This document shows, in pieces, positions 32,635 to 63,734 of a stretch of DNA of 64,000 bases; the first letter of the stretch is position 1; each line of letters starts with the position of its first letter. This DNA comes from a virus. Its lineage: Duplodnaviria; Caudoviricetes. The notes under the pieces are model-generated. The model searched no databases. It worked only from the letters and a program-made list of their open reading frames with translations, and was not told the origin of the DNA. The translations under genes were made by a program, and so were the position numbers. The DNA lies in IMG/VR virus record IMGVR_UViG_3300028591_000127, positions 32,001 through 96,000 of that record, one strand, 5' to 3'.

Positions 32635-32802
32635 TTAAAGTCTCTTTTTGCTACCCCTCTTTACAACTAATTTGCCATTAGCTCCCATCTTAGCATCAGC
32701 AACATACATACCCTCAGAATCTTGACCTACTTTCTTATACTGATATTCGTCGGTAGGGTCTTCCTCTGAAAAATAACGTGGTCTCGAAATTCTTATCTTC
32801 AT
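32635..32802 (-). CDS. Small 55-aa protein with RYFS leader (not in ORF track)
   Basis: Translated by hand: MKIRISRPRYFSEEDPTDEYQYKKVGQDSEGMYVADAKMGANGKLVVKRGSKKRL; fills the gap between neighbours exactly. Confidence 0.7.
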   Translation of the reverse strand: MKIRISRPRYFSEEDPTDEYQYKKVGQDSEGMYVADAKMGANGKLVVKRGSKKRL

Positions 32803-32805
32803 ATT

Positions 32806-33111
32806 CTAAATATAATTAGTCCAAGCCCACAAAGTTCTATATCCAAGATAGTAGGGATTATTTTCGTAACCCCTTGCTTCTATCTCAAAGGAAAGTTTAT
32901 TATAGGCTTCAAAAGGATCTTGAAACATCCAAAACTTATAGATGTATTCTAGTACATACCAAATATACCAACCAACTACAAGCAATTCTATTTGTTGTCT
33001 CCAGTGTATCTCCCCATGTCTAATCGTATGTTCTGCAATTTCCTTACCTCCAGTAAAGACAAAAGGACCTACTATAATCTGAGGAAAAAACTCATTTTCA
33101 ATTCTTATCAT
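32806..33111 (-). CDS. Small membrane-associated protein with HExxH-like motif
   Basis: IRHGEIHWRQQIEL...WYIWYVLEY...SFEIEA resembles a conserved Bacteroidota/phage family; the motif is degenerate here. Confidence 0.55.
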   Translation of the reverse strand: MIRIENEFFPQIIVGPFVFTGGKEIAEHTIRHGEIHWRQQIELLVVGWYIWYVLEYIYKFWMFQDPFEAYNKLSFEIEARGYENNPYYLGYRTLWAWTNYI

Positions 33112-33523
33112 AATCGTTACTGCAAAGAGAGAAGAGGTAACGATACTTATAGCAGTTGTTAATGAAAGTTTCTGTCTCGCTTGTTAGGCCTTTGAACTCC
33201 GTGCCAGGGGGGATATCTTCATAAAAATCTTTAGTTTCTTTAATAGCATCCTCAATAAAACTTATAGCATCCGTGGCATTATTAGCGTAGAAAGGTACTT
33301 CTCCTGGCTTCATTTTACCAAGAATTCCCATATAACCTTCAGCAATGGTATCTTGAATATCACCCAAGATTTCATGAAACTCATCGAGGTAGACATGAAT
33401 ATTCTTCTTAGGAGCAGCCCAATGAAGCTCCTTACACTTAACTAAGAGGCCACTAAGAATACCCAAGAAACGGAGAAACTTTTCTTTTTCCTCTCTCGAA
33501 TAATATTTCTGAGTAAAGTTCAT
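33098..33523 (-). CDS. Dps/ferritin-like four-helix protein (DUF5856-like)
   Basis: KELHW...IHVYLDEFHE...DTIAEGYMG matches the Dps-like HW..H..D..E pattern; N-terminal KYYS. Confidence 0.65.
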   Translation of the reverse strand: MNFTQKYYSREEKEKFLRFLGILSGLLVKCKELHWAAPKKNIHVYLDEFHEILGDIQDTIAEGYMGILGKMKPGEVPFYANNATDAISFIEDAIKETKDFYEDIPPGTEFKGLTSETETFINNCYKYRYLFSLCSNDYDKN

Positions 33524-33541
33524 AACTTACTTTGTATAAGA

Positions 33542-33575
33542 TCTGAGGACTAAGGAATAAACCCTAATCCTCAGA
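33542..33575 (-). terminator. 14-bp RNA hairpin downstream of the tail tube gene
   Basis: Minus-strand UCUGAGGAUUAGGG/CCUUAGUCCUCAGA pairs with 2 G-U pairs; weak U-tract. Confidence 0.45.
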
Positions 33576-33590
33576 AGAAGTTTATTATAA

Positions 33591-34190
33591 TTATGTGAGA
33601 TTATCAAAAGTTCTGCTGTAGTGCTCAAACTTCATGCTCAGAACAACATCAGCACGATCGGTCTCAGACTCAGTAGCACCGTTCTCATCAATCTGTGCGT
33701 CGGTGATTACGCAGTTGAAGAATTCCAAAGATCTAACTGTAATACGAGAAGAGTTGGTCAGAACCAATTTAACATTAGCTACCAAGTCATCCTTACGGAA
33801 GCTATATCTCGTATCACGATCAGCAATCTTCTGTCTCCAGTCATCCAACCAATAAGTAATAGCTTGGTCTTCACGATCTACAAACTGAAGGCTAAGAGTA
33901 CCGTTGGTATTCTGACTAGTTTGCTGGTAGATATCCCAACCACCTCTCATACGCTTGGTAATACCGTTCGAAGAGGTGTCAATACCTACATTAACAGCAT
34001 TCAGACGACCATTGAGGATTTCGTCACCCGGATAATAAACAATTTTGGGAGCCTGCGTAAAAGACAGCTTCCACATATCGCCACGAAGGAACTCACGGTT
34101 ATTATCTTTATAGGTCTTTTCCCAGTCAATAAAGTTAATACCACTAAGAGCCTCACCACCTGGACGTACAAGTTCAGCAACTGTTGCCAT
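33591..34190 (-). CDS. Tail tube protein (gp19-like)
   Basis: 199 aa; GTLSLQFVDREDQAITYWLDDWRQ and terminal VVLSMKFEHY fit the tube fold; high-expression codon bias. Confidence 0.75.
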   Translation of the reverse strand: MATVAELVRPGGEALSGINFIDWEKTYKDNNREFLRGDMWKLSFTQAPKIVYYPGDEILNGRLNAVNVGIDTSSNGITKRMRGGWDIYQQTSQNTNGTLSLQFVDREDQAITYWLDDWRQKIADRDTRYSFRKDDLVANVKLVLTNSSRITVRSLEFFNCVITDAQIDENGATESETDRADVVLSMKFEHYSRTFDNLT

Positions 34191-34198
34191 AGTATTAA

Positions 34199-36375: not shown

Positions 36376-39300
36376 CTAAAACAATAAATCAAGACCTTCT
36401 GAGGCTAACTTAGCAGTGGTCATAATTTTACTAGCCTTTTTCCTATCCGCTGCCATCTTAGCTTCAAAGTCATTGTTCTTAGCTTTCAAGGAAGTTTTTT
36501 CCGGATCGTATATAGTCTCTTCCGATTTAGGATTCTCACCTACAATACTAAAGTTAACACTAAGATCTCCGCCGTCTCCCTCAATATCTCCAGACCTTTC
36601 TTCAACAAAATCTCTAAGAACTAGCAAGAGATCATATTTACTGATAGTTGAAAGCTGAGGAGTCATAGAATAAATTCTACACCTGAAAGTTACATTTTTA
36701 TATGGGGCAACAAGCTGGTATCTTTTATCTACAGCAGTAAGAGTGTTATCCTCATATGGATTAATATTTGTTACCTCATCTTTCTTCTTGGGTTCACTAT
36801 AATAGATCATAGAATCAAGACATCTTTCAAAATAAGTTCTTAATGATTTAAATTGGTCATCAACAAAAGTCAATTTAAACTCATTTGTAAACTCCATAGA
36901 TGTTGGATAAGCAATTTCACCATCAAAAAGTTGGAGGTTCTTAGTAGTAAGCTTTCCCTTTGCTAATTCAAAAGAAGTAATAGGTAAGTAAGTTGTATAG
37001 CCAGTTCTAACGTTATGATAGTACTTATTCCAGACATTAATTTCGTGTATTAATGGTAAATAAGTCTTTTCATTATTCTCAGCTCCCATAAAAGGTTCAA
37101 GAATGATCTCCCAATACATATTAGAATCTAAGGTTATTACCTTGACCGAATTAAATTCGCTGGAAGTAAACTTATTGGCTGAAGTCATATAAGGACTCTC
37201 TTTAATACTATCAAACATATCTTCGACAGTATTTATTTCATTGACTCTACTAACTTTAACTAAATCAACAAAGGTCTGTTTAATGCCTTCCCCTTTCAGG
37301 TACCTATTAGTAAACTTAACTTTATTACCAGGATCAACATCTTTTTCATCTGTCCCAAGCTGCTTATTACTCATAGCATACCAAGTAGTTTTACCACTAA
37401 GTAATTCGGTGGGATTATTAGAATCTTCATCCGGTCTATTGTGAGGCCTTACAGTATCAGGGAGAAGACATTTTGCGGCAGAAATTACAGCCGACTTAGC
37501 CAGGTCTTGAAGATCGTTGCTATTATAAAGAGCTGCAGAGGCTACTTCTCGGAGTTTACTTTTAGCTTTACCAGTTAAGAATTCATCTGATTCTCCAGGA
37601 AGTCTATCTCTGTTTAAACCAGCCTTAACCTCAGCAAGTTCTCTAGCAAGTACCATACCTGCCAAAGCCTCTTCAATCAGCTTAGCTTTAACCTTTGCAT
37701 TGCCAACCTTTAATGCACTGACTGCCTGATGTGCTAGAACACCGAAGTCTAGAATACCTGTATGATACTGATTTTGGACATGTTTCGCGGTGGGAATAGA
37801 CTCTTCACCTTGTTTAAGATCCTCAGTTTCAAAATCCTCTACTTTATTAGGATTACCATCTCCACCATAAAGAATCTTACTGCCATATTCAGCGAGGTCT
37901 AGCTTATCAACTTTCTTTTGGCCTGGATCATCACTGGCAACGTAAGTCATTTTATAGACATCACCATTCTCCAATATAACCTTGTAAAGCTTTTCTTCTA
38001 AGGCCATATCTCTGGCTGAATCTAGGGTATTTTCAATGACTTCTCCTTTCTCATTAGTCCCTTCTACACTCTTAGCAACTTCAGTAACAACACTAACTAT
38101 CTGCTCTACCCATTTAGATCTAGGATCCTTCGAGGGGTCTCCTGTTAGCTTAAGGATATTGTGAATTTTACCAGCCAACTTATAAACTCTATTTACTAGC
38201 TTATATCTTAGGTTCTTGTCAAGCTCTTCAGGATTTAAGAAAGGTTGGAAATTTGAGCCAGGTTCAGGTACCAGGACATTATTTGGATAAAGTTCTTGAT
38301 CAGGGGCTTTATCTTTTTTATCAATGAAGTCTGATAGGTCTTGATCCTCTCCCTTATTCCCCTTCTCAACAAAGGTAGATAGTTCTTTATCCTCAGCCTT
38401 ATCTTTTTTATCGACGAACTTTGATAGGTCTTGATCTTCAGGTTTATCCCTTTTCTCAACAAAGGTAGATAACTCCTTGTCCTCAGCTTTATCTTTTTTA
38501 TCAATGAAGTCTGATAGGCTTTGATCCTCCCCCTTCTCCCCTTTCTCAATAAAGGTAGAGAGTTCTTTATCTTCCGCCTTGTCTCTCTTGTCAATAAAAT
38601 CTTCTAAGGTTTCATCAGAATTATCACTAATTTTATCCTGATAGTCGACTAGTTCTTTATCTTCAGCTTTATCTTTTTTGTCGATAAAATCTTCTAAGGT
38701 TTCGTCAAGATTATCACTAATTTTATCCTGATAATCAACTAGTTCTTTATCTTCAGCTTTATCTTTTTTATCAATGAAGTCCTCTAGGGTTTCATCAAGA
38801 GAATCACTAATTTTATCTTGATAATCAACTAGTTCTTTATCGGAAGCACCTTGAATCTGGTCTTTATAATCTTCAAGATCTTTATCAGTGGTTCCCTCTA
38901 TTTCATCCTTATAGTCTTCAAGAGTTTCGTCTGTGTTATCTGTGAGGTCATCCCTATAATCAACAAGACTCTCTTCAGAGTCATAACTAAGACTTTCGAT
39001 ATAGTCACTTAGATTTGATCCATCCCAAGAGAAAGGATTAAAGTTCTCAGCACCCTTTTCAGAGTCAGAGGGAAGGCTATCTACATCAGAGTTATCACTG
39101 GCACTAGGAATAACACCTTCTTTATAGGTTCCAAGTTGTATGTCTGTTTGATTTCCTGTTATTGTATCTAAGAAATCACCCAGCTCTTGATCTTCATTCC
39201 CATTAATTTCTTCTCTGTGATCCTCAAGGGTCTCGTCAAGAGAATCTTTAATCGTTTCCTTATGATCCTCTAAAGTTTCATTAAGTGAATCCTTAAGACT

Positions 39301-41001
39301 CTCCCTATAATCCTCCAGTTTCTCCTCCTGGTTATCAGACAGTTCCTCCTTATGGCTTTCTAGTTTTTCATCAAGAGAATCTTTTATTTCCTCCTTATGC
39401 TTATCAAGACTTTCGTCAAGTGAATCCTTAATTACCTCTTTATGGTCTTCTAAAGCTTCATCCTGACTATCCTTAATAAGTTCTTGATGATTTTCTAGTT
39501 CTGGGTCCTCATTCCCCTGAATATTTTCCTTATGGTTCTCAAGCTCTTCATCAGAACTATCACTTATTCTCTCTTTATGATCTTCCAAGTTTTCATCAAG
39601 AGAATTACTAAGCTTTTCTTTATAGTCTTCTAGATTCTCATCAAGGCTATCAGACAAGCCTTCTTTATAATCCTCAAGGTTTTCATCTTGGTTTTCTGTA
39701 AGATTTTCTTTATGATCTTCTAGGACCTGATCTTCATTTCCTTGGATCTTTTCTTGGTAATCTTCTAACTTTTCATTAGTGGAATCTTTGATTACCTCTT
39801 TATGGTCCTCTAGTCTTTCGTCTGGGGAATCTGTTAGTTCTTCCCTGTGGTTCTCTAGAGTTTTATTAGGATCATCACTTAATCCCTCTTTATGGTCCTC
39901 TAGGCTTTCATCTTGGTTATCATTTATTTTTTCTTGATAGTCCTCTAGAGTTTCATTAGGATTATCACTTAACCCTTCTTTATGGTCTTCTAGGTTTTCA
40001 TCTGGGGAATCCGTTAGTTCTTCCTTATGATCCTCTAGAGTTTCATTAGGATTATCACTTAACCCTTCTTTATGGTCTTCTAGGTTTTCATCTGGGGTAT
40101 CATTTATTTTTTCTTGATAGTCCTCTAGAGTTTCATTAGGATTATCACTTAACCCTTCTTTATGGTCTTCTAGGTTTTCATCTGGGGAATCCGTTAGTTC
40201 TTCCTTATGATCCTCTAGAGTTTCATTAAGTGAATCCTTAAGACCTTCCCTATAATCCTCTAGGCTTTCGTCTTGGCTATCACTTATTCTTTCTTTGTAA
40301 TCCTCAAGTTCCTGACTTTCATTCCCCTTTATCTCCTCTTTGTGATCCTCTAAGGTTTCATCTTGATTATCCTCAATCACCTCTTTGTGGTTTTCAAGAC
40401 TTTCATCAAGTGAATCCTTAATTACTTCTTTGTGATCTTCTAGTACCCGATCTTCGTTCCCTTGAATCTCTTCACGGTAATCTTCAAGTGATTCTAAGGC
40501 TTCTCCAGACTCAAGCTGATCAATAATACTAGAAAGCTCTCCTTCCCGAGTATCTTCAATTAGCTCTTTGTTGTCCTCAAGTTCAATATTCTCTCTTGTA
40601 TCTACTAGTTCTTCCCTTAACTCACTTAATGCTGTTTCTAGCTCGTTTGTTAAAGTGTCAAGATCTTCAGGAAGTTCAATATCTCCTGCCGATTCAATAG
40701 TCTCTAGGTTGGTTCTTAATTCTAAATCACCCACTCTTTCTATTGTCTCAACTTGGTCAGGTAGAGTATTTTTTCTATCATCAATCAATCCCTCTACCCT
40801 GGTTGGAAGTTCAGGATCTTTCAAAAAACGGGCTCCCTGTACTTCTATATTGTCTTTATTCAGACTTTCAGTAAGGGAGTCGTAGTAGTCTTTTCTTTTC
40901 TTTAAGTACTTTGAAAGGGCTTTAATCTCTTCTGGTCTGGTGTAAGTATCACATCCACTACCCGGGACCATATTTTCCCTCTTAATATCAGTATCGAGCA
41001 T
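36376..41001 (-). CDS. 1541-aa protein: long acidic 15-aa repeat region plus C-terminal tail-tube-like domain
   Basis: Repeats such as LEDHKEGLSDNPNET; C-terminus FKLTFVDDQFKSLRTYFERCLD...LSVNFSIVGE resembles the tube fold. Confidence 0.65.
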   Translation of the reverse strand: MLDTDIKRENMVPGSGCDTYTRPEEIKALSKYLKKRKDYYDSLTESLNKDNIEVQGARFLKDPELPTRVEGLIDDRKNTLPDQVETIERVGDLELRTNLETIESAGDIELPEDLDTLTNELETALSELREELVDTRENIELEDNKELIEDTREGELSSIIDQLESGEALESLEDYREEIQGNEDRVLEDHKEVIKDSLDESLENHKEVIEDNQDETLEDHKEEIKGNESQELEDYKERISDSQDESLEDYREGLKDSLNETLEDHKEELTDSPDENLEDHKEGLSDNPNETLEDYQEKINDTPDENLEDHKEGLSDNPNETLEDHKEELTDSPDENLEDHKEGLSDNPNETLEDYQEKINDNQDESLEDHKEGLSDDPNKTLENHREELTDSPDERLEDHKEVIKDSTNEKLEDYQEKIQGNEDQVLEDHKENLTENQDENLEDYKEGLSDSLDENLEDYKEKLSNSLDENLEDHKERISDSSDEELENHKENIQGNEDPELENHQELIKDSQDEALEDHKEVIKDSLDESLDKHKEEIKDSLDEKLESHKEELSDNQEEKLEDYRESLKDSLNETLEDHKETIKDSLDETLEDHREEINGNEDQELGDFLDTITGNQTDIQLGTYKEGVIPSASDNSDVDSLPSDSEKGAENFNPFSWDGSNLSDYIESLSYDSEESLVDYRDDLTDNTDETLEDYKDEIEGTTDKDLEDYKDQIQGASDKELVDYQDKISDSLDETLEDFIDKKDKAEDKELVDYQDKISDNLDETLEDFIDKKDKAEDKELVDYQDKISDNSDETLEDFIDKRDKAEDKELSTFIEKGEKGEDQSLSDFIDKKDKAEDKELSTFVEKRDKPEDQDLSKFVDKKDKAEDKELSTFVEKGNKGEDQDLSDFIDKKDKAPDQELYPNNVLVPEPGSNFQPFLNPEELDKNLRYKLVNRVYKLAGKIHNILKLTGDPSKDPRSKWVEQIVSVVTEVAKSVEGTNEKGEVIENTLDSARDMALEEKLYKVILENGDVYKMTYVASDDPGQKKVDKLDLAEYGSKILYGGDGNPNKVEDFETEDLKQGEESIPTAKHVQNQYHTGILDFGVLAHQAVSALKVGNAKVKAKLIEEALAGMVLARELAEVKAGLNRDRLPGESDEFLTGKAKSKLREVASAALYNSNDLQDLAKSAVISAAKCLLPDTVRPHNRPDEDSNNPTELLSGKTTWYAMSNKQLGTDEKDVDPGNKVKFTNRYLKGEGIKQTFVDLVKVSRVNEINTVEDMFDSIKESPYMTSANKFTSSEFNSVKVITLDSNMYWEIILEPFMGAENNEKTYLPLIHEINVWNKYYHNVRTGYTTYLPITSFELAKGKLTTKNLQLFDGEIAYPTSMEFTNEFKLTFVDDQFKSLRTYFERCLDSMIYYSEPKKKDEVTNINPYEDNTLTAVDKRYQLVAPYKNVTFRCRIYSMTPQLSTISKYDLLLVLRDFVEERSGDIEGDGGDLSVNFSIVGENPKSEETIYDPEKTSLKAKNNDFEAKMAADRKKASKIMTTAKLASEGLDLLF
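38290..40510 (-). repeat. 45-nt (15-aa) tandem coding repeat, roughly 45 units in two sub-families
   Basis: Units LEDHKEELTDSPDEN / LEDYQEKINDTPDEN and LEDFIDKKDKAEDKE / LVDYQDKISDNLDET; near-exact DNA duplication with 180-nt offset starting at 39941 and 40121. Confidence 0.9.
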
Positions 41002-41003
41002 AA

Positions 41004-41444: not shown

Positions 41445-43043
41445 TTAGTCGTTTGTTAAGAAAGTACAGAACCCTTGATTCTTAATGATACTTTTCACTA
41501 GCTTATAATATTGCTGGAAAGTAAGAGGCCCTGATAACTTCATTACATTAATTCCTCTTTCGTAGTTAGTATTGGTTCTTATAAATTTAGAAATCAATCT
41601 AACTTCGTCGTCAATATCGTACTGGCAATAATCTAAACTTCTGGGAATATAGATTCTAACATTAGTAGGATCTGCTGTAATGCTAATTACATCCTTCGGA
41701 ATTTTACTACTAATCTCATAATCTTCCTCCCCATCTCGGTCTAGCTTATCGACAATCATATCTATCATATTATTGTTTGAAAATGTTGAATTTCTTAAGG
41801 CAGGTTTATCATAGAGATTTGGCTTCAAACCAAGATCCATAAATCTTTTTAGGATCTCATCGAAAGCATTAACATTCTTTAAGGGGTAAGTATAGACAAT
41901 AACCTCACCAGTATCACTTCGGTTGATTTCATCTGAGTACTTTCCATACCATCCCTTATCAATCTTAGTAGCCTCTTTCTTTGTGGAGGTTACAATAAAT
42001 AAACCAGAGTTCATAGAGAAATTAACCGGATTCTTATCAGAACCAACAGTGAAGTGGAAGGATTCGACATAACGGTTCTTACTTAATGCAGCCTCAAGAA
42101 ATCTATTACTATACTCAGACTTGGCCATACCAGGAGCAGCAAGAGACTCACGCTCCCTATTAGTCAACTCATTAATACCTTGAAGAATAGAATCGATCAT
42201 AATAGCGGGGAGTGCAGAAGGTCCTCTACCAACAAGACGAATGACCTTAGCTCCGCTAGTACCCAACATCTTAATTAAATCATACTTACTGAAAGCCGAT
42301 ACAGAAAACTCTTTCTCCTCTTCCTCAGTAACTTCATCCATCTTATTTGTTGCCTCAAGAATTCTTCCCTCAATAGAAGCGAAGTGGTCTAAGAGATTAA
42401 TAGGTGTATTAAGAACCTCACTAAGCTCTACAATAAACGAACAAATAACCTGGGTGTTAGTGAATGTTATATTAACGGCATAAGAATTTAGCTTGAGATT
42501 AACTGCTCTCGCTGTATATTCCATACCATAATACTTCTTACAATAATAATCTAGAGTCTTAGAGGTTTTATCTAATTCCTCTCGTGTCATTCCAAAAGTA
42601 TATAGTGTTAGTTGACCTCTATGAACGGCAACAGTAACTTTATACTTCGTTACTTCTCTGTCATTAGTGGAGAATTTTTCATCAAACTTAGCCCTATGTT
42701 TAAGAGAATCTCCAATAATCACACCCCCCAGGTTATACATGCTAAACTGTCTTCTAATACCTCTGTCTATGTCTTGGAATTTAGCCGATGACATAGGCTT
42801 GTGAATATAGTTCAAGAATAATTTAGTAGCAATACCTGTTAAAATGCCAGCACCTGCACCCTTAAAAGCACCCTCAATTATAGAGGAATCTTTCATATAG
42901 TGGCCAGCTACTGCACCAATTAAGGATCCTGCAACAGTGGTTTTTGATACTGTCTCAAGTGTTCCTGGAAGGCTAACTACGTCCTTTGGGCCTGTATAAT
43001 GTCCCTCAGGAATAGTAAAATCTTTTCTTTTAAATTTAATCAT
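41445..43043 (-). CDS. Multi-module head-associated protein with KDFT leader and glycine zipper
   Basis: MIKFKRKDFT; VAGSLIGAVAG / GAGAGILTGIA; internal KEFS and STFS at apparent module boundaries. Confidence 0.6.
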   Translation of the reverse strand: MIKFKRKDFTIPEGHYTGPKDVVSLPGTLETVSKTTVAGSLIGAVAGHYMKDSSIIEGAFKGAGAGILTGIATKLFLNYIHKPMSSAKFQDIDRGIRRQFSMYNLGGVIIGDSLKHRAKFDEKFSTNDREVTKYKVTVAVHRGQLTLYTFGMTREELDKTSKTLDYYCKKYYGMEYTARAVNLKLNSYAVNITFTNTQVICSFIVELSEVLNTPINLLDHFASIEGRILEATNKMDEVTEEEEKEFSVSAFSKYDLIKMLGTSGAKVIRLVGRGPSALPAIMIDSILQGINELTNRERESLAAPGMAKSEYSNRFLEAALSKNRYVESFHFTVGSDKNPVNFSMNSGLFIVTSTKKEATKIDKGWYGKYSDEINRSDTGEVIVYTYPLKNVNAFDEILKRFMDLGLKPNLYDKPALRNSTFSNNNMIDMIVDKLDRDGEEDYEISSKIPKDVISITADPTNVRIYIPRSLDYCQYDIDDEVRLISKFIRTNTNYERGINVMKLSGPLTFQQYYKLVKSIIKNQGFCTFLTND

Positions 43044-53557: not shown

Positions 53558-55000
53558 TTAGAAGCCAACCTTAAAGGTGACGCGCTGAACCAGCTCGGGA
53601 GCCATGTAACGAAGACCCTCCTGATAGTAGATACCGCTCGTCATCTGAGTCGGATTATTGTAGTTACCTACAGTAGGAGTATCGGTCAGAGGCATATAAA
53701 TACCACGAGCCAGAGGAGCCATTTGACCATCAGCAGTCTTGTGGATAGCATAGAAAGTACCCTCACCAGCAGCCTCGACTACGTCAGTCGAACGCAGAAC
53801 GGGGACACCATTATACCAACCAAGCAGGTCACTGATATAGCTCATCTTGTCATTGCGCTCCCACTTGCCAATAATACCGGCCTTCTGGAACTGATTAGCA
53901 GCCTGATTACCAGCAATATAAGCAGTGGTCGTAACACCCTTAACAACCTTGCTAGCCAGAGCGGTCTCAACATTAATCAGGTAGCTATCAAACAAATCAA
54001 CTCTTGAACGATAGTCCATGAAGTGAGAGCTCAGACCAGTAGAAGTGCTGCTCAGGTCGAGATCTTGCATAGTATCTCCAACATAGCCATTCTCCAGAGT
54101 CTTAACCATAGCGCCGTTAATGCACTTGGTATACAGCTCGCGCAGCTTGTTGAACAGGAACGTAGCCATGTCAGAACCAGTAGCCTTCTTCATTGCACCC
54201 AGAGCAGCGATGTCATACTCAGCCATCAGCATATCGGGAACAGTGTTCAGACCAATCTGTTGCATCTTAGCGAGGAAACGCTTGTCATTTGCATGGCTAT
54301 TGTCAGCACCAGTCGTACAGCTGGGAGTACCAACTGCATCCTCCTTACCAACAATCGTAATCTTACCACTGGCAGATACGGCATTAGTCAGAGTAAAGTC
54401 AACCTTACCGTTCAGGTAGTTCAAAGTACCGGCGGTAATAACACCAGCAACAGACAGGAAATGACCCTGACCATCATCAACCAGCTCATACTTAACGTTA
54501 CCAGCATCCTGGATCTTAACACGTACAGTACCAGGGATCAGCTTACGACCAATCAGATAAGAATAGGCAGTCGTAGTGCCATCAACGGTCAGGTCAGACT
54601 CAAAGTGACCCATAGTCTGAACATCGTTATAGTTATCCGGACCGAGGTTGGGGATAACAGGACGCAAATCACTAACGCCCAGAACGTCAAACCAATAGAA
54701 CAGACCGTTCGGCTGATCAAAGTCACGCTCAATCGACATGTAACCAGCGAAAGAGCTAACATAAGAAGCAACAGAAGCGTTGAAATACTGAGTGCTCAGC
54801 AGCGGGGTCTCTGCATAACCAGAGAAGTTCTTCTGAAGCAGGTTACCGTTCATAATGTTGTTGCCAAACATGTCAGCAGCACGCGAGAACGTCTTAGCAT
54901 ACTCCATACCACGGAGTCTAGCATCCTCTGCAGAAACAGAGCTATTACGAAGAGCAACACTCATCTCGGGTGTGCTCATGAAATTCGAAAACTGATTCAT
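53558..55000 (-). CDS. Major capsid protein (T4 gp23-like HK97 fold)
   Basis: Follows protease and scaffold; DQPNGLFYWFD, LLGWYNGVPV and GIYMPL motifs; strongest codon bias in the window. Confidence 0.85.
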   Translation of the reverse strand: MNQFSNFMSTPEMSVALRNSSVSAEDARLRGMEYAKTFSRAADMFGNNIMNGNLLQKNFSGYAETPLLSTQYFNASVASYVSSFAGYMSIERDFDQPNGLFYWFDVLGVSDLRPVIPNLGPDNYNDVQTMGHFESDLTVDGTTTAYSYLIGRKLIPGTVRVKIQDAGNVKYELVDDGQGHFLSVAGVITAGTLNYLNGKVDFTLTNAVSASGKITIVGKEDAVGTPSCTTGADNSHANDKRFLAKMQQIGLNTVPDMLMAEYDIAALGAMKKATGSDMATFLFNKLRELYTKCINGAMVKTLENGYVGDTMQDLDLSSTSTGLSSHFMDYRSRVDLFDSYLINVETALASKVVKGVTTTAYIAGNQAANQFQKAGIIGKWERNDKMSYISDLLGWYNGVPVLRSTDVVEAAGEGTFYAIHKTADGQMAPLARGIYMPLTDTPTVGNYNNPTQMTSGIYYQEGLRYMAPELVQRVTFKVGF

Positions 55001-55025: not shown

Positions 55026-57446
55026 TTATTTATATTGAAGCCAAGAGATCAATGTATCATCTTGGGCACTCTGACTAAATGTTCTCTCGGAGAACTGAGC
55101 CTCTTTAATATCGGGCTCCATATTGGGAGCGGGCTGAGCCTTAGCATCCATAACTTGAGCAACAGCTTCAGCAGCTGCGGCATTGATACTCTGAACAGCA
55201 GCAAGAGCCTTATCCTCAATCTCCTCAACAGTATGAGATTCCTCCTCTACGGGAGCTTCTGCAACTACCGGCTGGGCAGCAGGAGCAGTGGCAGCAGGCT
55301 GGGGAGCAATTTCTTGACCTGTAGCAGACTGTGGAGATGCTGCGGCAGGAATAACTTGCTCAGTGAAGAACTTGGCAATAGGATCGCAAGAACTGTAACC
55401 CTTCTCCTCAATCTCCTCTTCACGAGTCTTCTCAACCTTCAGGTCCTTAGTAAGCTCATCAGCCTCTTCCTCCGAGATAGGATTAATGTCGAGAACCTCA
55501 TCCTTAATCTCAGCCTTATGGAAATCGCCAGTCTCCTTATCCTCAATTACTGCGGTAGTATCATCGATAGGAGTAATGATCTCATTGTCGTTCTCAATCT
55601 GCTGACCATCTTCGATAGCATCCTCAATTTCGTCCTCACTAGCCTCATCACTGAACAGACGAGCCATATAATTGGTCATCTCTTCACTCTCAGAGAAGAA
55701 CTTAGTCCCCTTGTCATTTACATAAGAGTAGTTCTTAATCTCACCCTCTTCCTCAGCAAGAGCATTTTCAGACTCCTTATTGGGAGCTACAACTACATCC
55801 TCAAACTGGTCATCAGCATCATCTTCGTCAATCGGATGAACAACAATCATATCATCATTGAGAATAGTAACCTTAGACAGCTCACCAGTCTCCTTATCCT
55901 CAACAATAGCGCTCTTAGCATCTACCGGAGTAATGATTTCATTGTCATTCTCAATCTCGGTGCCCTCTTCAATAGCTTCCTCGATGTCACTCTGCTCTGC
56001 CTCATCACTGAACAGACGAGCCATATAGTCGGTCATCTCTTCATTCTCAGAGAAGAACTTAGTTCCATCTTCGTTTGAATAGTCGAAATAATCAGAGAAT
56101 TCCTTCTCTTCATCCTCGTCCTCATCAACAGGTGCCTCATCCTCATAATCATCGGCCTCTTCAATAGCCTCATTCATATCAGAATCAACAACGATAAGAT
56201 CCTCACCATCAAGAACTTCCTTAGCATCCTCAGGATCCATCTCTTCAAGAATAACATCCTCACCAGAAATCTTAGCCTTGGTAAATTCTACACCATCCTG
56301 AACAATAGCAGTAAGAGCATCGATCGGGGTTACAACACCACCTTCAAACTCAACCTCATGACCACCACGAATAGCATCATAGACGGCATCAACAGTATCA
56401 GTAGTACCGGCCTCTGTCTCTGAGAACATACGAGACATCATAACAGTATTGTCCGTATAGTAACGTGCAGTATAGAAACAAGGACAATCATAGTAAGCAG
56501 AGAACTCCTTCTGCTCCTGAGACTCTTCAACCTCACCCTCCTCAGGATTAGCGCCAAGGCTAACCAACAGATGATAAGCGTAGTCACGAGCAGCTTCGGG
56601 GTCGTCACAAATCTTAATAGCCTCAACACCATCAGCCTCAAGACGGGCCTGAAGTGCCTGAGCAGACTCAAGATCATACTCCTGTGCCTCTACAATGACG
56701 TGATCATAAGGCTGAACACCAACAATAATATAGGGAAGATACTGGCCCTCACAGAAAGCCTTGCTATCCAACTCAGTAACTTCCATATCGTTATCGTCCA
56801 GCTTAACCTTAACCTGATCACCAGTAGCTTCACTGGTAACAACAACGGCATTATCTTCATCGGCCAACTTCTCAACCTTCAGATCGCCAACCTTTGCAGT
56901 CTCCTCACTCTCAATAACTTCAGAGAAGAGATAATCAACAAACTCCTGAGGCATGGAGAAAATTTTCTGCCAAGCGTCATTCTCAGAGCTAATGCTGAAC
57001 TGCTTACCCTCATCCTCACATTGACAGGGAGATGCACCACAATTAGGACACTTCTCACCGAAAGCTTGATCAGCTACGGTCTCAGCTTTTACACCGAGCT
57101 TACTATCATCAAAATGATCACTAGCCTTCTCATCAGGAGCACCAGTAGCGGAGCCAGGAGTAACACCATCATCAGACGGGTGGGCAAATCTCTCAAGCTG
57201 TCCATCCGGAACGGCAATCAGGTCATAAGTCTCAGCTTCCTCAGGATTACGTGATGCGACTGTGATCTCACCAGTTTCTTTATCGGTAATAGCTACATCA
57301 CCATTACCTTGCTTTTCATACTTAACCTCTTCGGTATCAACAACACCATCCTTCTCAGCGGCTTTGATGTCGTTACCTACCTGTTCCTTGAGCTCAGCAG
57401 GTGTCTCCTCAGAAAACATGAGCTCCATCAATCTTGTATTCTTCAT
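55026..57446 (-). CDS. Prohead scaffold/core protein (acidic, repeated modules)
   Basis: Highly acidic 806 aa just upstream of the capsid gene; duplicated GTKFFSE.EEMT.YMARLFSDEA...IENDNEIITP modules; 12 K/R-x-F/Y-S sites. Confidence 0.75.
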   Translation of the reverse strand: MKNTRLMELMFSEETPAELKEQVGNDIKAAEKDGVVDTEEVKYEKQGNGDVAITDKETGEITVASRNPEEAETYDLIAVPDGQLERFAHPSDDGVTPGSATGAPDEKASDHFDDSKLGVKAETVADQAFGEKCPNCGASPCQCEDEGKQFSISSENDAWQKIFSMPQEFVDYLFSEVIESEETAKVGDLKVEKLADEDNAVVVTSEATGDQVKVKLDDNDMEVTELDSKAFCEGQYLPYIIVGVQPYDHVIVEAQEYDLESAQALQARLEADGVEAIKICDDPEAARDYAYHLLVSLGANPEEGEVEESQEQKEFSAYYDCPCFYTARYYTDNTVMMSRMFSETEAGTTDTVDAVYDAIRGGHEVEFEGGVVTPIDALTAIVQDGVEFTKAKISGEDVILEEMDPEDAKEVLDGEDLIVVDSDMNEAIEEADDYEDEAPVDEDEDEEKEFSDYFDYSNEDGTKFFSENEEMTDYMARLFSDEAEQSDIEEAIEEGTEIENDNEIITPVDAKSAIVEDKETGELSKVTILNDDMIVVHPIDEDDADDQFEDVVVAPNKESENALAEEEGEIKNYSYVNDKGTKFFSESEEMTNYMARLFSDEASEDEIEDAIEDGQQIENDNEIITPIDDTTAVIEDKETGDFHKAEIKDEVLDINPISEEEADELTKDLKVEKTREEEIEEKGYSSCDPIAKFFTEQVIPAAASPQSATGQEIAPQPAATAPAAQPVVAEAPVEEESHTVEEIEDKALAAVQSINAAAAEAVAQVMDAKAQPAPNMEPDIKEAQFSERTFSQSAQDDTLISWLQYK

Positions 57447-57463: not shown

Positions 57464-58258
57464 TTAGTTCTGAATAGTAACTTGACTACCAGATAGCTTG
57501 ATTACGCCCTCCTTTGCTAAGAGATCAATAATGTCCTCTGGGGCATCAGGATAGCGCTCTCTAATTATTTTGATAAACTCTTCAATACCAAAGCAGTTAT
57601 TATTGGGATACTCAAGTCTCAAGTCATCACAAATATGAGAATCCTCTAGCCAATTCTCTTCTTCGCTAAAAACTCTCGTATTAGGATTAGGCATAATACC
57701 ATGAGCCTTCTTGATAATCATAATACCCTTCTCAGGAAGAGCACCACGATTTTCTAAACCTTCAATAACTTCCTCCGGACAAACCTCGTGATTCATGATT
57801 TCGGGGTCCAACTCTAAGGTCTTGGTAACTGAAATAGTTATTTTTGAGAATAAACGCTCTGTGGCATAAGCGATTGGACTAATACTGACCTGGTTGTTAT
57901 CACTAATCCTAGCATAACCGCGCTCGATCATTTCCTCTCCCTTATCAGAGAAAATCTTCTCAAATTCATCACACTCCAATACTTCACCAGAGAATTGCTT
58001 CAAATTCATCTCATATTCATTCTTTGGAATATCAAATAAAGATTCTCTAGTTTCAGTTTCTTGCTTCTTATCTGCTTTAGGGAATAAGGCAAGATTAAAT
58101 CTCTTACCACCACACTCAGGACAAATAATACTACTTGTCGATTCTGCAGTCTCTAAAACACATCCGCAATCTTTACAAATGACTTTTCTCAGACTATTAT
58201 CAGAAGTGGAAGAGAAAAGCTTCTTTCGTGGGAACAATTTGATTCTACTACTTAACAT
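57464..58258 (-). CDS. Zn-ribbon prohead core-associated protein
   Basis: CKDC...CPEC; five K/R-x-F-S sites; between protease and scaffold. Confidence 0.6.
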   Translation of the reverse strand: MLSSRIKLFPRKKLFSSTSDNSLRKVICKDCGCVLETAESTSSIICPECGGKRFNLALFPKADKKQETETRESLFDIPKNEYEMNLKQFSGEVLECDEFEKIFSDKGEEMIERGYARISDNNQVSISPIAYATERLFSKITISVTKTLELDPEIMNHEVCPEEVIEGLENRGALPEKGIMIIKKAHGIMPNPNTRVFSEEENWLEDSHICDDLRLEYPNNNCFGIEEFIKIIRERYPDAPEDIIDLLAKEGVIKLSGSQVTIQN

Positions 58259-59495
58259 TCTTCTCCTCCTCCATAATAGACTGTTCTAGGCCCTCTGGAA
58301 GTTCATTTGGTCCAAAAACCTCTTCCTCCATTGCCTTAGTAAATTCAATATAAGCTTCCTGAAGATTTTTTAGTCGCATCGGAGTTAAAGTGCCTCGTTT
58401 GGACATCTCCATATAAGCCAGGCGGGCCGGTTGTTGTAATTTCTGACTGGCTACACGAACAGATTTTCCAAGAGATCCTGCACCAGTCAAAGTAGCAATG
58501 GTCTTACCCGCCAGGATCTCGGGAGTAAGCACCTCGAAAATATCAAGAAGATCCGTCATAAAAAGAGACTTCATAATTTTCAAAGTCTCAGGATCAATCT
58601 TTTCTGCGCCACCTGCTTGCTTAATTGCTTGTTTGTACTCTAAAAACAGACGACGCATTCTCATTCTGGGAGAGAACTTAGCATATCTAACACGCTCTCT
58701 AATAGTAGCAACAGAATATGTTCTCTCAGTATCCTCTTCGATCTGAACTGTATCGGCCAACATAGAGTACTCTTTAGCTTTCAGGATACAGTACTTACCA
58801 TCAATCTTTGAGGATCTTGCTATCTCAGGATCTACGCCTACTTCATCGACACTAGAGAAGGTCTTTACTCGAATATCTGAATCCTTAATCGAAAAAGTCT
58901 TCTCACCTCTCTTAGTATCTTCATCGTCATAGTAAACATCAGTGATTCGAGCTAAAGGACCGAATGAGGGATTTTTTGTGAAATCAACACCCTTCAAAAG
59001 TTTAATTCTCTTGCACTCATCAATACCATTTCCATTCGATTCCCAATAAGCGAGAACAACCATAGAACAAGGCACCTGAACACCAGATTTAATTAAACCC
59101 TTCAATCTCTTTATATTCTCGGCAGCAAGACTATCAAAATCCTTCTCATCTAGAATATGAATCAAGGCACAAAGAAAAGGACCTTCTCCCGGAACATTCT
59201 CAATGTAAAACTCCTTGACGTAATGAGTATATGTGGGGACATTTTCACCAACACACAAACCCGCATCATCAACTCCAATCTGCTTGCGAAGAAGCTCGGG
59301 TTTGCCTATAGAATCAGGAAGTGCAGTAAGACCCCTACCACGATGAGTAAGATATCCAAGACACTCCCTCGTCTCCATAGAACGCTCATATTCCTCAGAG
59401 TTAAGATAGTTTCTTACTACAGTTTCACCAATATGAGATCCATCTGCAGCAAAATGATTGGGACCTAACCCACAACATCTTACTCTTACATCCAT
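58248..59495 (-). CDS. Prohead maturation protease (gp21/HK97-type serine protease) with C-terminal extension
   Basis: CLGYLTH (cf. ALGELNH), GVQVPCS (cf. GVSS) and GVDFTKNPSF (cf. D-x-V-x-x-PS); canonical protease-scaffold-capsid order. Confidence 0.8.
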   Translation of the reverse strand: MDVRVRCCGLGPNHFAADGSHIGETVVRNYLNSEEYERSMETRECLGYLTHRGRGLTALPDSIGKPELLRKQIGVDDAGLCVGENVPTYTHYVKEFYIENVPGEGPFLCALIHILDEKDFDSLAAENIKRLKGLIKSGVQVPCSMVVLAYWESNGNGIDECKRIKLLKGVDFTKNPSFGPLARITDVYYDDEDTKRGEKTFSIKDSDIRVKTFSSVDEVGVDPEIARSSKIDGKYCILKAKEYSMLADTVQIEEDTERTYSVATIRERVRYAKFSPRMRMRRLFLEYKQAIKQAGGAEKIDPETLKIMKSLFMTDLLDIFEVLTPEILAGKTIATLTGAGSLGKSVRVASQKLQQPARLAYMEMSKRGTLTPMRLKNLQEAYIEFTKAMEEEVFGPNELPEGLEQSIMEEEKNVK

Positions 59496-59599: not shown

Positions 59600-60088
59600 T
59601 TAATAAGAATAGCCTTCTCTATTAGTATTATTGCTAACAAAATCCTTGCGCTCACGTCTGTTTGCCTGTCTCTGAGCATACCCAAGGCGCTGATTGTAAA
59701 ATTTATTATCCTTGATCTTATTACGATTGGCAAGATATGTACTACCTGCACCAATCAAACCACCAGCAGCGGCACCCAATCCTAATGCGCCTTTGCCACC
59801 ACCGAGATAGCCAAGATTCTGAGCAATCTTTGCAGCACCTAAGCCGATACCGGCGCCGGCAGCAGTACCAACACCCACCTTAGCATAGTTACCAGCATTA
59901 CTGCGCTTCTTTTCAGCCAGAATATCAGAATCCTTCATCTTTTTCAGATTATCAGTATCATCCCACTTAGTATATTGACGCAACTCCTCAAGATACTGCT
60001 CCTCAGTCAGATATTCAGAGTAAGAATACAATCTCTCCTCACCATTCTCATCAATATCAGAGAAAAATCTATCAACTTTAATAATCAT
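59600..60088 (-). CDS. Glycine-zipper protein with RFFS leader
   Basis: MIIKVDRFFS, RLYS, RQYT; VGVGTAAGAGIGLGAA and GLGAAAGGLIGAG. Confidence 0.7.
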   Translation of the reverse strand: MIIKVDRFFSDIDENGEERLYSYSEYLTEEQYLEELRQYTKWDDTDNLKKMKDSDILAEKKRSNAGNYAKVGVGTAAGAGIGLGAAKIAQNLGYLGGGKGALGLGAAAGGLIGAGSTYLANRNKIKDNKFYNQRLGYAQRQANRRERKDFVSNNTNREGYSY

Positions 60089-60150: not shown

Positions 60151-60181
60151 CCTAGTGTTACTTAGGAGAGGGATGTGTACA

Positions 60182-60880: not shown

Positions 60881-61183
60881 TTTACTTACCCCCACTATTA
60901 TAACCCTCCTTGGACATTTTTTTCTAAATAGACAGAATCTTTATCCAAGTTCTTATTAACAAATTTATTCTTTATCAGAGCTTTCATGACAGGATTATAC
61001 TTTATTCGGACCTGGTATTTCTTCTAACCTAAGAGTCACCGCATAAAGCATAATTGGCCCCGTCTTTTAAACTAAAGTCTGAATAATATCGTCTTAATAA
61101 TATCACATTCCTTATAACGAGAGGGAGAGTTACCCTAGCGTTTCTAGGCTCCCTCATTTACGTCTTTTGTAATTACTCTGAGA

Positions 61184-61321: not shown

Positions 61322-61476
61322 AATCGTTATATTTAAATGTTAATACTAGATCTCCTCTGAGAAGTTGAATCTCAATAATAAACCGTTAGGAGACAACGAT
61401 ATGATACTAAGAGTGAGATCCCAAACCCTAATCGAATAGTAACTACCAAAATGTAGCAGTTTGGGATTTTATATCT

Positions 61477-61737
61477 TTACAGTACTATAGCAGAAAGAAT
61501 TAGCGCAACAATTACACCAACTCCAGCACTAATAAAGTAAGATTTCTTATTAAAATCATCCTTGCCAATAATGATACCTAAAAGCTCGCCAAGTAAGGCT
61601 GCACCCAAAGAAGCAAAGATAGAAATACCAGTAGTACCAAGAATAGTGGCACCATCAATAGTCGACTCCTGCCATACTACACCACCAACAGCAAGAATGA
61701 CCAAAATAATGTTTAAAACAAGTCTCCAAATTTTCAT
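61477..61737 (-). CDS. Small membrane protein (about 3 TM helices)
   Basis: Three hydrophobic segments. Confidence 0.6.
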   Translation of the reverse strand: MKIWRLVLNIILVILAVGGVVWQESTIDGATILGTTGISIFASLGAALLGELLGIIIGKDDFNKKSYFISAGVGVIVALILSAIVL

Positions 61738-61740
61738 AAT

Positions 61741-61992
61741 TTATACTAAACTAAATCCAAAAATTAGTCCCCTAATAGTGTAACCAATGGCCACACTAAC
61801 CAGAGTTATTGTAAAGTCTACCCAATCCCATAGACCTCCCCATAGCTTATCCTTTAATTCAGAGGTAATACTAATACCTATGCCAACATAAGCAGCACAA
61901 TATACAGAGTTTGATCCAAAACCCACTAACAAGCCAATGAGAATATGAAGCCAATGATGACTTTCTGTAAACCATTTAATTATTTTCCCCAT
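61741..61992 (-). CDS. Small membrane protein
   Basis: ESHHWLH...ELKDKLWGGLWDWVDF with hydrophobic helices, a pattern seen in Bacteroidota phage membrane proteins. Confidence 0.6.
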   Translation of the reverse strand: MGKIIKWFTESHHWLHILIGLLVGFGSNSVYCAAYVGIGISITSELKDKLWGGLWDWVDFTITLVSVAIGYTIRGLIFGFSLV

Positions 61993-61995
61993 AGA

Positions 61996-62433
61996 TTAAT
62001 CCTCCTGAAGATTCTTAAGGGCTTTTTTATGCCGTTTTACTTTCATACCAGCCTTAGTTGCCTCTACACCATGATAAGCTGTATTCAAACCAGTAATACC
62101 TAATCCAACAGCATTAAAACCTTTATTACTACCTTTTTTCAGTCCTCTACCAAAAGAACCAGCTAAAATACCATTAAGGGTTGCTACAGTTCCGTGTCCT
62201 AATGCCTTCCTCTTCTCAGAGGCAATAGCATTCTCATAGGCTTTAGCAAGGTCCTCTTCTGCCTTAGAGAAATTCTTATGGTACTCGTAAGAACTACTTT
62301 CACTCCTTACCTTACTGGTCGGAGTAGAGTCTGAATATTTATGGTTGACCTCTTTTGACACTCCACCATCGTCATAAACCTTAATAGATTCTGAATCAAA
62401 AGTCTTAGGTCTTTGTACCTTTATTTTAGCCAT
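61996..62433 (-). CDS. Basic glycine-rich protein with KTF leader and internal KNFS
   Basis: MAKIKVQRPKTFD...HKNFS; GTVATLNGILAG and GLGITGLNTAYHG. Confidence 0.6.
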   Translation of the reverse strand: MAKIKVQRPKTFDSESIKVYDDGGVSKEVNHKYSDSTPTSKVRSESSSYEYHKNFSKAEEDLAKAYENAIASEKRKALGHGTVATLNGILAGSFGRGLKKGSNKGFNAVGLGITGLNTAYHGVEATKAGMKVKRHKKALKNLQED

Positions 62434-62516
62434 AATTTTGATATTTTAGTTAATTAGTCTTCCCGGTCTAATCAAATAGGTAGAACTTAATAATGTTCTC
62501 CGGGAAGTGTTATTGT

Positions 62517-63734
62517 TTAAAGCATATTTTTTAAACCATTAAGGTAATCCCCTGTCTCCTTATAGTTACTAATGATAGTGTCTATATCCTTTTCAGACGT
62601 TATCCCTCGTAATGATTTTCCTGTAGACATATAGTTCTTACCTAGATCTAGTTTATTTCCATACTTAACAAGAGCTTTATCAGTAATCACCTTACCTCTA
62701 GCCGCATCAATGCCTTTAGATAAACCAGCGCCTAAGAGACCTCCTGTAGCAGCTCCTTTTATCATTCCGGCATTTTTCCGAGATCTTACGAAATTATCAT
62801 ACTCTAAAGATCCCTTTTCCAACCCGTATTTATTAATAGCGGCCTTCTTAGCCTTCTTGCCTTCGACCTCTCTACCAACTAAAGACCCAATCACAGATCC
62901 GCCGCCAGACAAGTATTCAGTCTGATGCTTATTAAAATGAGAGAGCCCACCTAATTCTTTAGTAAGCTTACCCCTTACGTTATAGAGATCGTTTCCTACA
63001 AAGTGTCTAAATTGTTGGGCTAAGATTCTGTCACCCTTGGCAGCAGTAAAAGCAGAGTAATTTCTAGTCCTAGCAGCAGCCTCAACCACACTATCTACAC
63101 GATCTAATACAGGCCTGACTACTCTATTAAAAGTTCCTTCAGAGAACCTATCCGCCTGTGTTGAACTAGCCTTACCGGAAACCATCTCCCTAGCAAAATG
63201 CTCGCAGTTATTATTTCTGAGATTATACTGACCGCGATCTTTTCCGATCCAGGATTCGGCCCTTGATACTACTTCTTCTGGCGTATAAGGACCTTTAGCT
63301 TTCTCTATTCTGAGGGCGCTTCCGTTTGAAAAATGATCTAAGCTTGTATACCCTACATTAGCGGTTCGAGGATCAAACTTTTCAGAGCCATATTCAATAA
63401 TTTTGCCATCTTTACCAACGATACCATAATGTTGATATGCTCCTCGGTCTGCAATAACAATATCACCAGGACTCATTGTTTGTCTAACTTGCTCAATATC
63501 AGCCTTTATAGGTTTTCCAATATAGGCTTTATATCTTTTTTTCGCATACTTACTACCTGCTCCAAGTGTTCCACCAATAGTAGCACCGACAATAGCGCCC
63601 TTTATTGCTCTTGACTTTTGCTTTCCGTCTTTCTCTTTCCTACCACGAATAAGCTGAGTTGTTGCACCAGTAATACCGCCAATTGCAGATCCAGTTAGTA
63701 CGGGTTTTACATAACTAAATCTTTTTACTTTCAT
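62517..63734 (-). CDS. LRAT/NC-domain (permuted NlpC/P60) protein flanked by glycine zippers
   Basis: PGDIVIADRGAYQHYGIV...EEVVSRAESWIG...YNLRNNNCEHFAREM..G...STQ is the LRAT/HRASLS signature; MKVKRFS leader. Confidence 0.85.
   Translation of the reverse strand: MKVKRFSYVKPVLTGSAIGGITGATTQLIRGRKEKDGKQKSRAIKGAIVGATIGGTLGAGSKYAKKRYKAYIGKPIKADIEQVRQTMSPGDIVIADRGAYQHYGIVGKDGKIIEYGSEKFDPRTANVGYTSLDHFSNGSALRIEKAKGPYTPEEVVSRAESWIGKDRGQYNLRNNNCEHFAREMVSGKASSTQADRFSEGTFNRVVRPVLDRVDSVVEAAARTRNYSAFTAAKGDRILAQQFRHFVGNDLYNVRGKLTKELGGLSHFNKHQTEYLSGGGSVIGSLVGREVEGKKAKKAAINKYGLEKGSLEYDNFVRSRKNAGMIKGAATGGLLGAGLSKGIDAARGKVITDKALVKYGNKLDLGKNYMSTGKSLRGITSEKDIDTIISNYKETGDYLNGLKNML

Follow-up and report, generated by a model that had tools for sequence, protein, structure and literature searches.

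The stretch of DNA analysed here (the window, 64,000 nucleotides) comprises bases 32001-96000 of a 109,071-bp virus contig, the IMG/VR record IMGVR_UViG_3300028591_000127 (Caudoviricetes), for which CheckV gives a completeness of 29% and whose real genes all lie on the minus strand. Between positions 32635 and 64000 it encodes a series of proteins that begin with the same kind of short leader, which ends in the motif [KR]x[FY][ST], together with a predicted prohead protease and other components of a phage head. The main form of the leader is ten residues long, as in MIKFRQKEFS. The statistics of the motif, the conservation of its sites, the fold of the protease and the co-occurrence of motif and protease were all established in silico. 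Positions below are those of the window unless another sequence is named, and residues of the motif are designated as in protease substrates, with K/R at P3, F/Y at P1 and S/T at P1'.

The genes that define the head and tail modules are the following:

58248-59495, minus strand: predicted prohead protease, 415 aa, with a gp21/assemblin-fold domain (aa 1-195), a linker and a C-terminal helical domain (aa 262-399)
55026-57446, minus strand: 806-aa scaffold/core-like protein, isoelectric point (pI) 4.05, 27% Asp plus Glu, 14 motif sites
53558-55000, minus strand: gp23-type major capsid protein (MCP), 480 aa; annotated MCPs are matched weakly by tblastn, and PF07068 (Gp23) occurs on 22-75% of the members of the nearest Atlas clusters
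44752-47310, minus strand: tail sheath (phrog_23, E 6.9e-5), N-terminus MAQWTETLEPY, conserved and without the motif; negative control
33591-34190, minus strand: tail tube (phrog_45, E 6.7e-6), without leader; negative control
25848-31085, minus strand: tape measure (phrog_9570, E 3.3e-9), without leader, one internal motif vs 2.2 expected
contig 106347-108245, minus strand: large terminase (TerL), by tblastn to annotated TerL genes at ~26% identity

Downstream of the protease gene follow the genes of a 264-residue acidic protein, of the 806-residue acidic protein and of the MCP, an order that is kept in 78-79 related loci and on the distant contig L102. No informative Pfam or PHROG match was obtained for the protease, the scaffold, the MCP, the 264-residue protein or most of the proteins that carry the leader. 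The identity of the MCP is taken from tblastn and the Atlas clusters; its AlphaFold2 model (mean predicted local distance difference test score, pLDDT, 49.2) was too poor for a fold search, and a profile search of the PDB with the MCP alignment returned no relative.

The proteins with a leader (the tagged proteins) are encoded in the window as follows:

63741-64000, minus strand: 3' part of a gene with leader MIIKVDRFFS, which starts at 64175, past the window edge
62517-63734, minus strand: 405 aa, leader MKVKRFS; LRAT/NlpC-P60-like domain (PF04970 LRAT, E 4.5e-18), glycine-zipper segments, second site at aa 224, mature pI 9.9
61996-62433, minus strand: 145 aa, leader MAKIKVQRPKTFD, a variant with Asp at P1'
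59600-60088, minus strand: 162 aa, leader MIIKVDRFFS; paralogs at 63741-64175 and contig 70487-71044, related to 48864-49328
57464-58258, minus strand: 264 aa, leader MLSSRIKLFPRKKLFS, four further motif sites
52912-53451, minus strand: ~179 aa, leader MIIIRSRYYS, read from the internal ATG at 53451
51433-51816, minus strand: 127 aa, variant leader MVTFRKKTLT; orthologs MITFKRKTFE or MINFRKKKYL
50883-51446, minus strand: 187 aa, leader MVKFRQKTFS, kept in 78 loci as MI[KT]FRQKxF[ST]
50653-50883, minus strand: 76 aa, leader MILLRKNYS
50353-50649, minus strand: 98 aa, leader MASIKIERKKYFS; orthologs MA[RTK]Y[RIK]LKRK[TC][FY][GNS]
49331-50335, minus strand: 334 aa, leader MKFKQKNFF, Phe at P1'; internal sites RSYS at aa 73 and aa 206
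48864-49328, minus strand: 154 aa, leader MASIKLRRKWFT
48545-48880, minus strand: 111 aa, leader MIIRIKRFS
47344-48090, minus strand: 248 aa, glycine-rich, leader MKFKYKSFS
43040-43870, minus strand: leader MVKFKEKDFG, Gly at P1', from the internal ATG at 43870; between sheath and tube; the gene at the same position in the relative G001 begins MIILRQKEYA
41445-43043, minus strand: 532 aa, leader MIKFKRKDFT; two more sites at aa 98 and 244; G001 ortholog begins MIKFKKKEFT
33098-33523, minus strand: 141 aa, DUF5856 (PF19174, E 1.1e-8), leader MNFTQKYYS; between tube and tape measure
32635-32802, minus strand: 55-aa open reading frame (ORF), leader MKIRISRPRYFS

Without their leaders, most of these proteins are basic (pI 9-10). 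A tiny ORF at 61029-61157 (minus strand) gives the leader-like VILLRRYYS if it is read from a GTG, and is maybe the remnant of a tagged gene.

Sixteen of these N-termini had been listed in an earlier sequence-only reading of the window, and all of them are found at the starts given there, two of which (53451 and 43870) are internal ATGs within longer mechanical ORFs beginning with TTG or GTG, while a third (32802) heads the ORF of 55 residues; the variant leader at 51433-51816 had been overlooked. That reading spoke of about 16 head-region proteins. The leaders are indeed there, whereas both the number and the restriction to the head cluster have to be revised: about ten further leaders lie just past the right edge of the window (contig 96-106 kb), among them MIILRKKSFS, MIVIRQKYYS, MIILRHKEYS and MLVKRNVYFS, so that the contig holds ~27 including variants, and leader genes also lie on either side of the tube gene, towards the sheath and towards the tape measure. 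All of them are located between the terminase and the tape measure. The claimed absence of leaders from sheath, tube and tape measure holds, and it extends to every protein downstream of the tape measure.

The enrichment of the motif at protein starts is far beyond chance. Of the 85 proteins encoded on the minus strand of the contig, 18 have [KR]x[FY][ST] within residues 1-16; shuffling yields 1.35 +/- 1.15 such proteins, at most 7 in 2000 trials, and 2.5 would be expected from the internal background rate (binomial p 6e-11). When all patterns of the types a.bc and abc were counted without bias, K.FS ranked second on the head side of the contig (27 vs 2.7 expected, z 15.7), the sole pattern above it being contributed by the tandem repeat of a 1541-residue protein, and nothing comparable to K.FS appeared on the tail side. 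The head side contains 69 copies of the motif vs 17 expected and the tail side 25 vs 26.

The same motif is dense inside several proteins of the head module, as the sequence-only reading had noted for the scaffold, the protease tail and the capsid N-terminus, where 14, 4 and 2 copies are counted, respectively. The 14 sites of the 806-residue protein compare with 0.46 expected (z 18.5), and 10 of them recur in 36 or more of 40 homologs, at a flank identity of 0.2-0.5; cuts at all of them would yield 15 pieces of 10-152 residues. Residues 448-610 of this protein harbour an internal duplication, GTKFFSE[NS]EEMT[DN]YMARLFSDEA, with two sites 14 residues apart in each copy. The acidic 264-residue protein, which is probably a core or scaffold component and has Cys pairs (CPECGG), carries five sites vs 0.25 expected, of which three recur in 25 or more of 27 homologs, and its relatives begin with a doubled motif, e.g. 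MARLKLFS...RRKLFS.

All 30 MCP homologs compared have both EYAK-x-FS (aa 36-39) and LLQK-x-FS (aa 57-60). From residue 60 onwards (LLQK-x-FS|GYAETPLLSTQYF...) the protein is near-invariant, while the preceding 59 residues drift, a pattern that resembles a propeptide boundary; the predicted N-terminus of the mature protein would thus be S60-GYAETPLL. The MCP of T4 likewise loses an N-terminal propeptide (PMC9026906). Across homologs, the sites stand out as conserved islands in which K and R as well as F and Y interchange, between flanks that are 20-50% identical. In scaffold, protease and MCP, [KR]x[FY][ST] reaches z 18.5, 9.0 and 4.7, whereas the T4 rule [LI]xE ([LIVM]xE) and the [SAG]xE rule of the phiKZ group stay at chance level in the same proteins (z -0.6 to 1.4), as does the herpes-type [LIV]xA|S.

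One of these proteins is the putative enzyme itself. An AlphaFold2 model of the protease, built from an alignment of 18 homologs, has a pLDDT of 71.7, with the blocks of the N-terminal domain mostly at 73-91. Comparison of this model with 48,161 chains by VIA-align placed T4 gp21 (5jbl_A) first (Z 10.3, root-mean-square deviation 3.1, 132 residues aligned, model residues 1-175), followed by the proteases of varicella-zoster virus (Z 8.0) and human cytomegalovirus (Z 7.2); later, unrelated matches concern the helical C-terminal domain. Residues H51, R54, D77 and S144 are invariant in all 76 family representatives that cover the catalytic domain. The likewise invariant D18 and D171, together with D77, are candidates for recognition of the Lys/Arg at P3. 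The linker contains four motif sites (aa 199, 211, 241 and 258), vs 0.45 expected in the whole protein, and all four are kept in 19 of 19 homologs.

The association of motif and protease holds across the family. A profile search of 1.84 billion representative proteins retrieved 242 relatives of the protease at E<=1e-3, and 45 of the 46 long family members have at least two motif copies right after the catalytic domain. A further 64 representatives (among P0026-P0148) consist of the helical C-terminal domain without a protease domain; in those whose N-termini were listed (~30), KxFS nearly always lies ~5 residues ahead of that domain. The C-terminal domain is a separate module, which may serve to anchor the protease in the core. 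Twenty-eight representatives are stand-alone protease domains of ~165 residues. Among 74 family representatives, 14 have a protease that begins with a leader-like strand ending in the motif, e.g. MRCKVKLFS, which recalls the site LIE-9 near the N-terminus of T4 gp21; the window protease, starting MDVRVRCCGL, has no such strand.

Taken together, [K/R]-x-[F/Y]-[S/T] is probably the recognition and cleavage motif of the phage's own gp21/assemblin-fold prohead protease. The specificity of this enzyme would have shifted from Glu at P1 to Phe or Tyr, with an additional basic residue at P3. The cut would most likely fall between F/Y and S, a bond that we infer from the preference for Ser at P1' in assemblin and in gp245 of SPN3US (PMC10052503). 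Head maturation could then proceed in the following manner: (i) the acidic 806-residue scaffold would be cut into ~15 pieces; (ii) the protease would free itself from its C-terminal helical domain at the four linker sites; (iii) the 59-residue propeptide would be removed from the gp23-type capsid protein; and (iv) a leader of 6-13 residues would be trimmed off ~27 otherwise unrelated, mostly basic proteins.

The leader presumably consists of two layers, the cut motif and, upstream of it, a hydrophobic-basic targeting segment. P5 is basic in 81% of the leaders vs 15% of the internal sites, and P6-P9 are hydrophobic in 71-96% vs 17-36%, the leaders being devoid of acidic residues at these positions. 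In six of seven ortholog families, the leader is better conserved than the mature part. By analogy with T4, the upstream segment (M-I-[IK]-[LF]-R-x-K) probably serves to guide the proteins into the core of the prohead during its assembly; their packaging and later ejection would follow from the same analogy. The sequence-only reading had proposed an address tag fused to a cleavage site of aromatic P1 specificity. Its cleavage part agrees with every computational test that could be applied, and the address part receives indirect support from the P9-P5 layer and from the conservation of the leaders.

A complete relative of 353,025 bp with terminal repeats, G001, shows the same arrangement at the scale of a whole genome. 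Strict N-terminal matches occur in 25 of its 455 proteins, vs 8.6 +/- 2.8 by shuffling. Seventeen are full-form leaders, MII[LK]RxKxF[ST], all at 251-294 kb, a block that comprises terminase, portal-side, head and upstream tail genes and ends just ahead of the tape measure; the 8 strict matches elsewhere are about as many as expected by chance and lack the MII-R-K form. One leader of G001, MFILRIKEFT, heads a GNAT acetyltransferase (251663-252145, i.e. L095:11663-12145; PF13508, E 1e-13), a candidate packaged enzyme. Just upstream of the head module, at 239.5-245.4 kb (L094/L095), lie ~12 tandem paralogous genes for proteins of ~160 residues, e.g. MVELCIFKG... On two distant contigs with the same protease family, neighbouring genes begin with the minimal leaders MTKTFS and MGLTKTFS. 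Bare leaders of this kind are found on contig L102 (11700-13619 and 6744-6899), where one MTKTFS protein of 640 residues has 10 internal motif copies, and on L103 (5880-7298), where a 472-residue DUF5856 protein begins MTKTFS and has 6.

The alternative that survives best, although we consider it unlikely, is that the motif is an uncut binding peptide by which scaffold, protease and cargo are held to each other or attached to the inside of the capsid, comparable to the cargo-loading peptides of encapsulins and the contact motifs between scaffold and coat proteins. A docking motif, too, would be expected to form multivalent repeats in the scaffold (here 14 copies) and to stand at the end of unrelated cargo proteins, and the upstream layer of the leader indicates that more than a protease subsite is read. 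The location of the motif is, however, typical of a processing site, both in the MCP, where it sits in the propeptide just ahead of the near-invariant mature part, and at the domain boundaries of the protease family, ~5 residues ahead of the C-terminal domain. Moreover, an enzyme of the gp21 fold must follow some cleavage rule, and those known for this fold are at chance level. Binding and cutting do not exclude each other in any case, since the protease must bind its own site.

A second alternative, considerably less probable, is removal of the leaders by another protease, e.g. a host enzyme or a Prp-like cysteine protease. The precedent is the staphylococcal phage 80alpha, whose capsid and scaffold proteins reportedly bear the leader of ribosomal protein L27, MLKLNLQFF|A, cut by the host protease Prp. 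Papers on the 80alpha system are PMC5744158 and PMC9405229. There is a superficial likeness between the two systems: a short leader of 9-10 residues, an alternating hydrophobic/polar strand, ends in F-F/x followed by a small residue (MIIKVDRFF|S vs MLKLNLQFF|A) and is common to capsid and scaffold proteins. In 80alpha, however, Gln occupies P3; here P3 is K or R in all strict leaders, P1' is Ser or Thr and Gln at P3 was not found. Neither the contig nor the complete G001 has a Peptidase_Prp (PF04327) match. The relatives of the window phage resemble Jug phages, whose predicted hosts are the Bacteroidota Bacteroides and Phocaeicola (PMC12880540), whereas the bL27 extension, in 10.64898/2026.08.10.744006, is described for Firmicutes and given as absent from Gram-negative bacteria. 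Above all, the motif tracks the gp21-like protease family and sits in the linker of that very enzyme.

Still more improbable is that the leader represents the charged n-region of a Sec signal peptide or membrane anchor and that the tagged proteins are exported or membrane proteins. A few of them do continue with glycine-rich hydrophobic stretches, e.g. MKFKQKNFF-WPAIGVAGTVV and MKVKRFS-YVKPVLTGSAIGG, yet a stretch resembling an h-region follows within 40 residues of the leader in 6 of 25 only, two of which are doubtful leaders. Most continue with acidic or polar residues (EYDAMRS, ESDDLSEL, DIDENGEE), and the copies of the motif inside scaffold, protease and MCP would be left unexplained.

The weakest candidate, to which we give hardly any credence, is a nucleotide-level signal (late promoter, translation enhancer or recombination junction) or common descent: the leaders are AT-rich and stand at the gene starts of one co-oriented late block, but the motif is also enriched far inside genes, the conserved residues are encoded by freely varying codons (TCN and AGY for Ser; AAA, AAG, AGA and CGT for Lys/Arg; mixed codons for F/Y), which indicates selection on the peptide and not on a DNA signal, and 25 tagged proteins fall into 21 BLAST-unrelated families once the leader is removed, so that paralogy or shared descent does not explain the pattern. 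The codon test was repeated on curated leaders; a first leader scan, noisy as it included internal ATGs, was used for codon diversity alone.

Several points weigh against cleavage of the motif by the gp21-like protease. In several leaders, P1' is F, D, G, N, I or A, or P1 is L; some of the tagged genes are located among tail genes; and the motif could be a binding site instead of a scissile one. The conserved VSAED in the N-terminus of the MCP would fit an S/A-x-E site of the phiKZ type, and the MCP taken by itself would permit a cut after Glu. The fold assignment of the protease comes from one aligner and a model of moderate confidence: a Foldseek search with the whole 415-residue model gave no match at E<=0.001, gp21 ranking eighth with E 0.17. 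As the protease has no Pfam or PHROG family at E<=0.01 and no profile match in the PDB, its relationship to gp21 is visible by fold only. A putative catalytic role of His51 and Ser144, which would fit a His/Ser protease of this fold, is suggested by their invariance. The upstream layer of the leader is not universal, the distant relatives carrying just MTKTFS. Finally, a literature search yielded neither a cultured relative nor a virion proteome.

The phage can be placed by its head genes. A scan of IMG/VR with the capsid protein identified 79 related loci at 60-78% identity, many of them on contigs of 350-401 kb. Many of the related contigs presumably originate from the human gut, as we read their sample numbers. 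In size, in this apparent gut origin and in a split protease ORF, the group recalls the Jug phages, jumbo gut phages of 360-402 kb with predicted hosts in Bacteroides/Phocaeicola and with group I introns that split genes (PMC12880540). It is the largest clade of relatives that has its protease ORF in pieces, which fits such introns. At ~74% MCP identity, the window phage looks like a relative of that group and not a verified member of it; the link is one of resemblance and not of comparison with Jug genomes. The nearest distant cultured relative by MCP and TerL is Acinetobacter phage Ab1-TPeters, which has a compact head module and no array of small genes.

Three further genes of the contig deserve mention. 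A 561-residue protein at the position expected for the portal (L001:1267-2952, corresponding to contig 97267-98952, minus strand) has no Pfam, PHROG or phage tblastn match and remains a candidate for this function; it has a conserved FFQKIFG at residues 9-15, possibly a variant site with Gly at P1'. The 1541-residue protein with the tandem repeat (36376-41001, minus strand) is encoded between sheath and tube and contains ~27 repeats of 15 residues, LEDHKEx[IL]xDxxDEx, at about residues 180-600. In the tail/baseplate block, a homing endonuclease (21083-22399, minus strand) gives phrog_7168 at E 3e-21 and GIY-YIG-type matches.

A wider proposal goes beyond cleavage and is held tentatively, its chances being somewhat short of even: a small, hitherto undescribed branch of the gp21/assemblin fold has switched from Glu to F/Y at P1, with K/R at P3, and is coupled, in a clade akin to the Jug phages that are prevalent in human and animal guts, to a two-part tag, M-I-I/K-L/F-R-x-K-x-F|S, that loads 27-35 unrelated proteins into the capsid for delivery into Bacteroidota. 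The cargo may comprise basic DNA-associated proteins, enzymes (LRAT/NlpC-P60-like, GNAT) and membrane-active proteins with glycine zippers. In that case, sequence alone would reveal which proteins an uncultured phage group injects, and the ten-residue tag could be reused for loading foreign proteins. Jug phages are reported to account for ~1.1% of human gut metagenome reads and to have no cultured member (PMC12880540); a tag that is readable in the sequence is therefore the only current handle on virion cargo for hosts of the Bacteroides type.

A literature search found no description of this leader or of a prohead protease with basic-x-aromatic or aromatic-P1 specificity, and the paper on Jug phages mentions neither leaders nor motifs (PMC12880540). 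The proposed basic-x-aromatic|Ser rule would belong to an enzyme whose known relatives by fold cleave after Glu in phages or after Ala in herpesviruses, which raises the enzymological question of which changes in the substrate pockets turn a Glu-specific prohead protease into an aromatic-specific one.

Among these relatives by fold, the herpesvirus assemblin cuts Ala|Ser. It shares with the window protease the fold family, a specificity other than Glu and Ser at P1', but has Ala at P1, no basic P3 and no set of N-terminally tagged cargo. In phiKZ, 201phi2-1 and SPN3US, head maturation is carried out by the proteases gp175/gp245 at S/A/G-x-E or A-x-E (PMC10052503, PMC9026906). The similarities to this group are a huge myovirus, many head proteins as substrates of a gp21-related protease, redundant propeptide sites, a protease that cuts itself and Ser at P1'; these enzymes, however, cut after Glu and mostly remove long propeptides (20-254 residues; nine substrates in SPN3US), whereas here the leaders are 6-13 residues long, far more proteins carry them and P1 is aromatic.

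The closest parallel is the capsid-targeting sequence of T4, a two-part signal of ten residues on IPI, IPII, IPIII and Alt that is removed by gp21 and in which targeting and processing residues are separate (PMC9026906). Here as there, a leader of ~10 residues stands on unrelated, mostly basic proteins and ends in a motif that is also found in the scaffold, in the propeptide of the MCP and in the head protease itself; the presumed targeting residues would lie upstream and the processing residues at the end; and a gene for a gp21-fold protease adjoins those for the scaffold and a gp23-type MCP. Unlike T4, with its motif [LI]-x-E|, the motif is [KR]-x-[FY]|S, the leader has no sequence similarity to MKTYQEFIAE, ~27-35 proteins instead of a handful are tagged, and the protease has a separate C-terminal helical domain behind a linker with four sites. 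The general design is the textbook principle of T4; what is new is the proposed specificity, the large number of tagged proteins and the group of phages in which it occurs.

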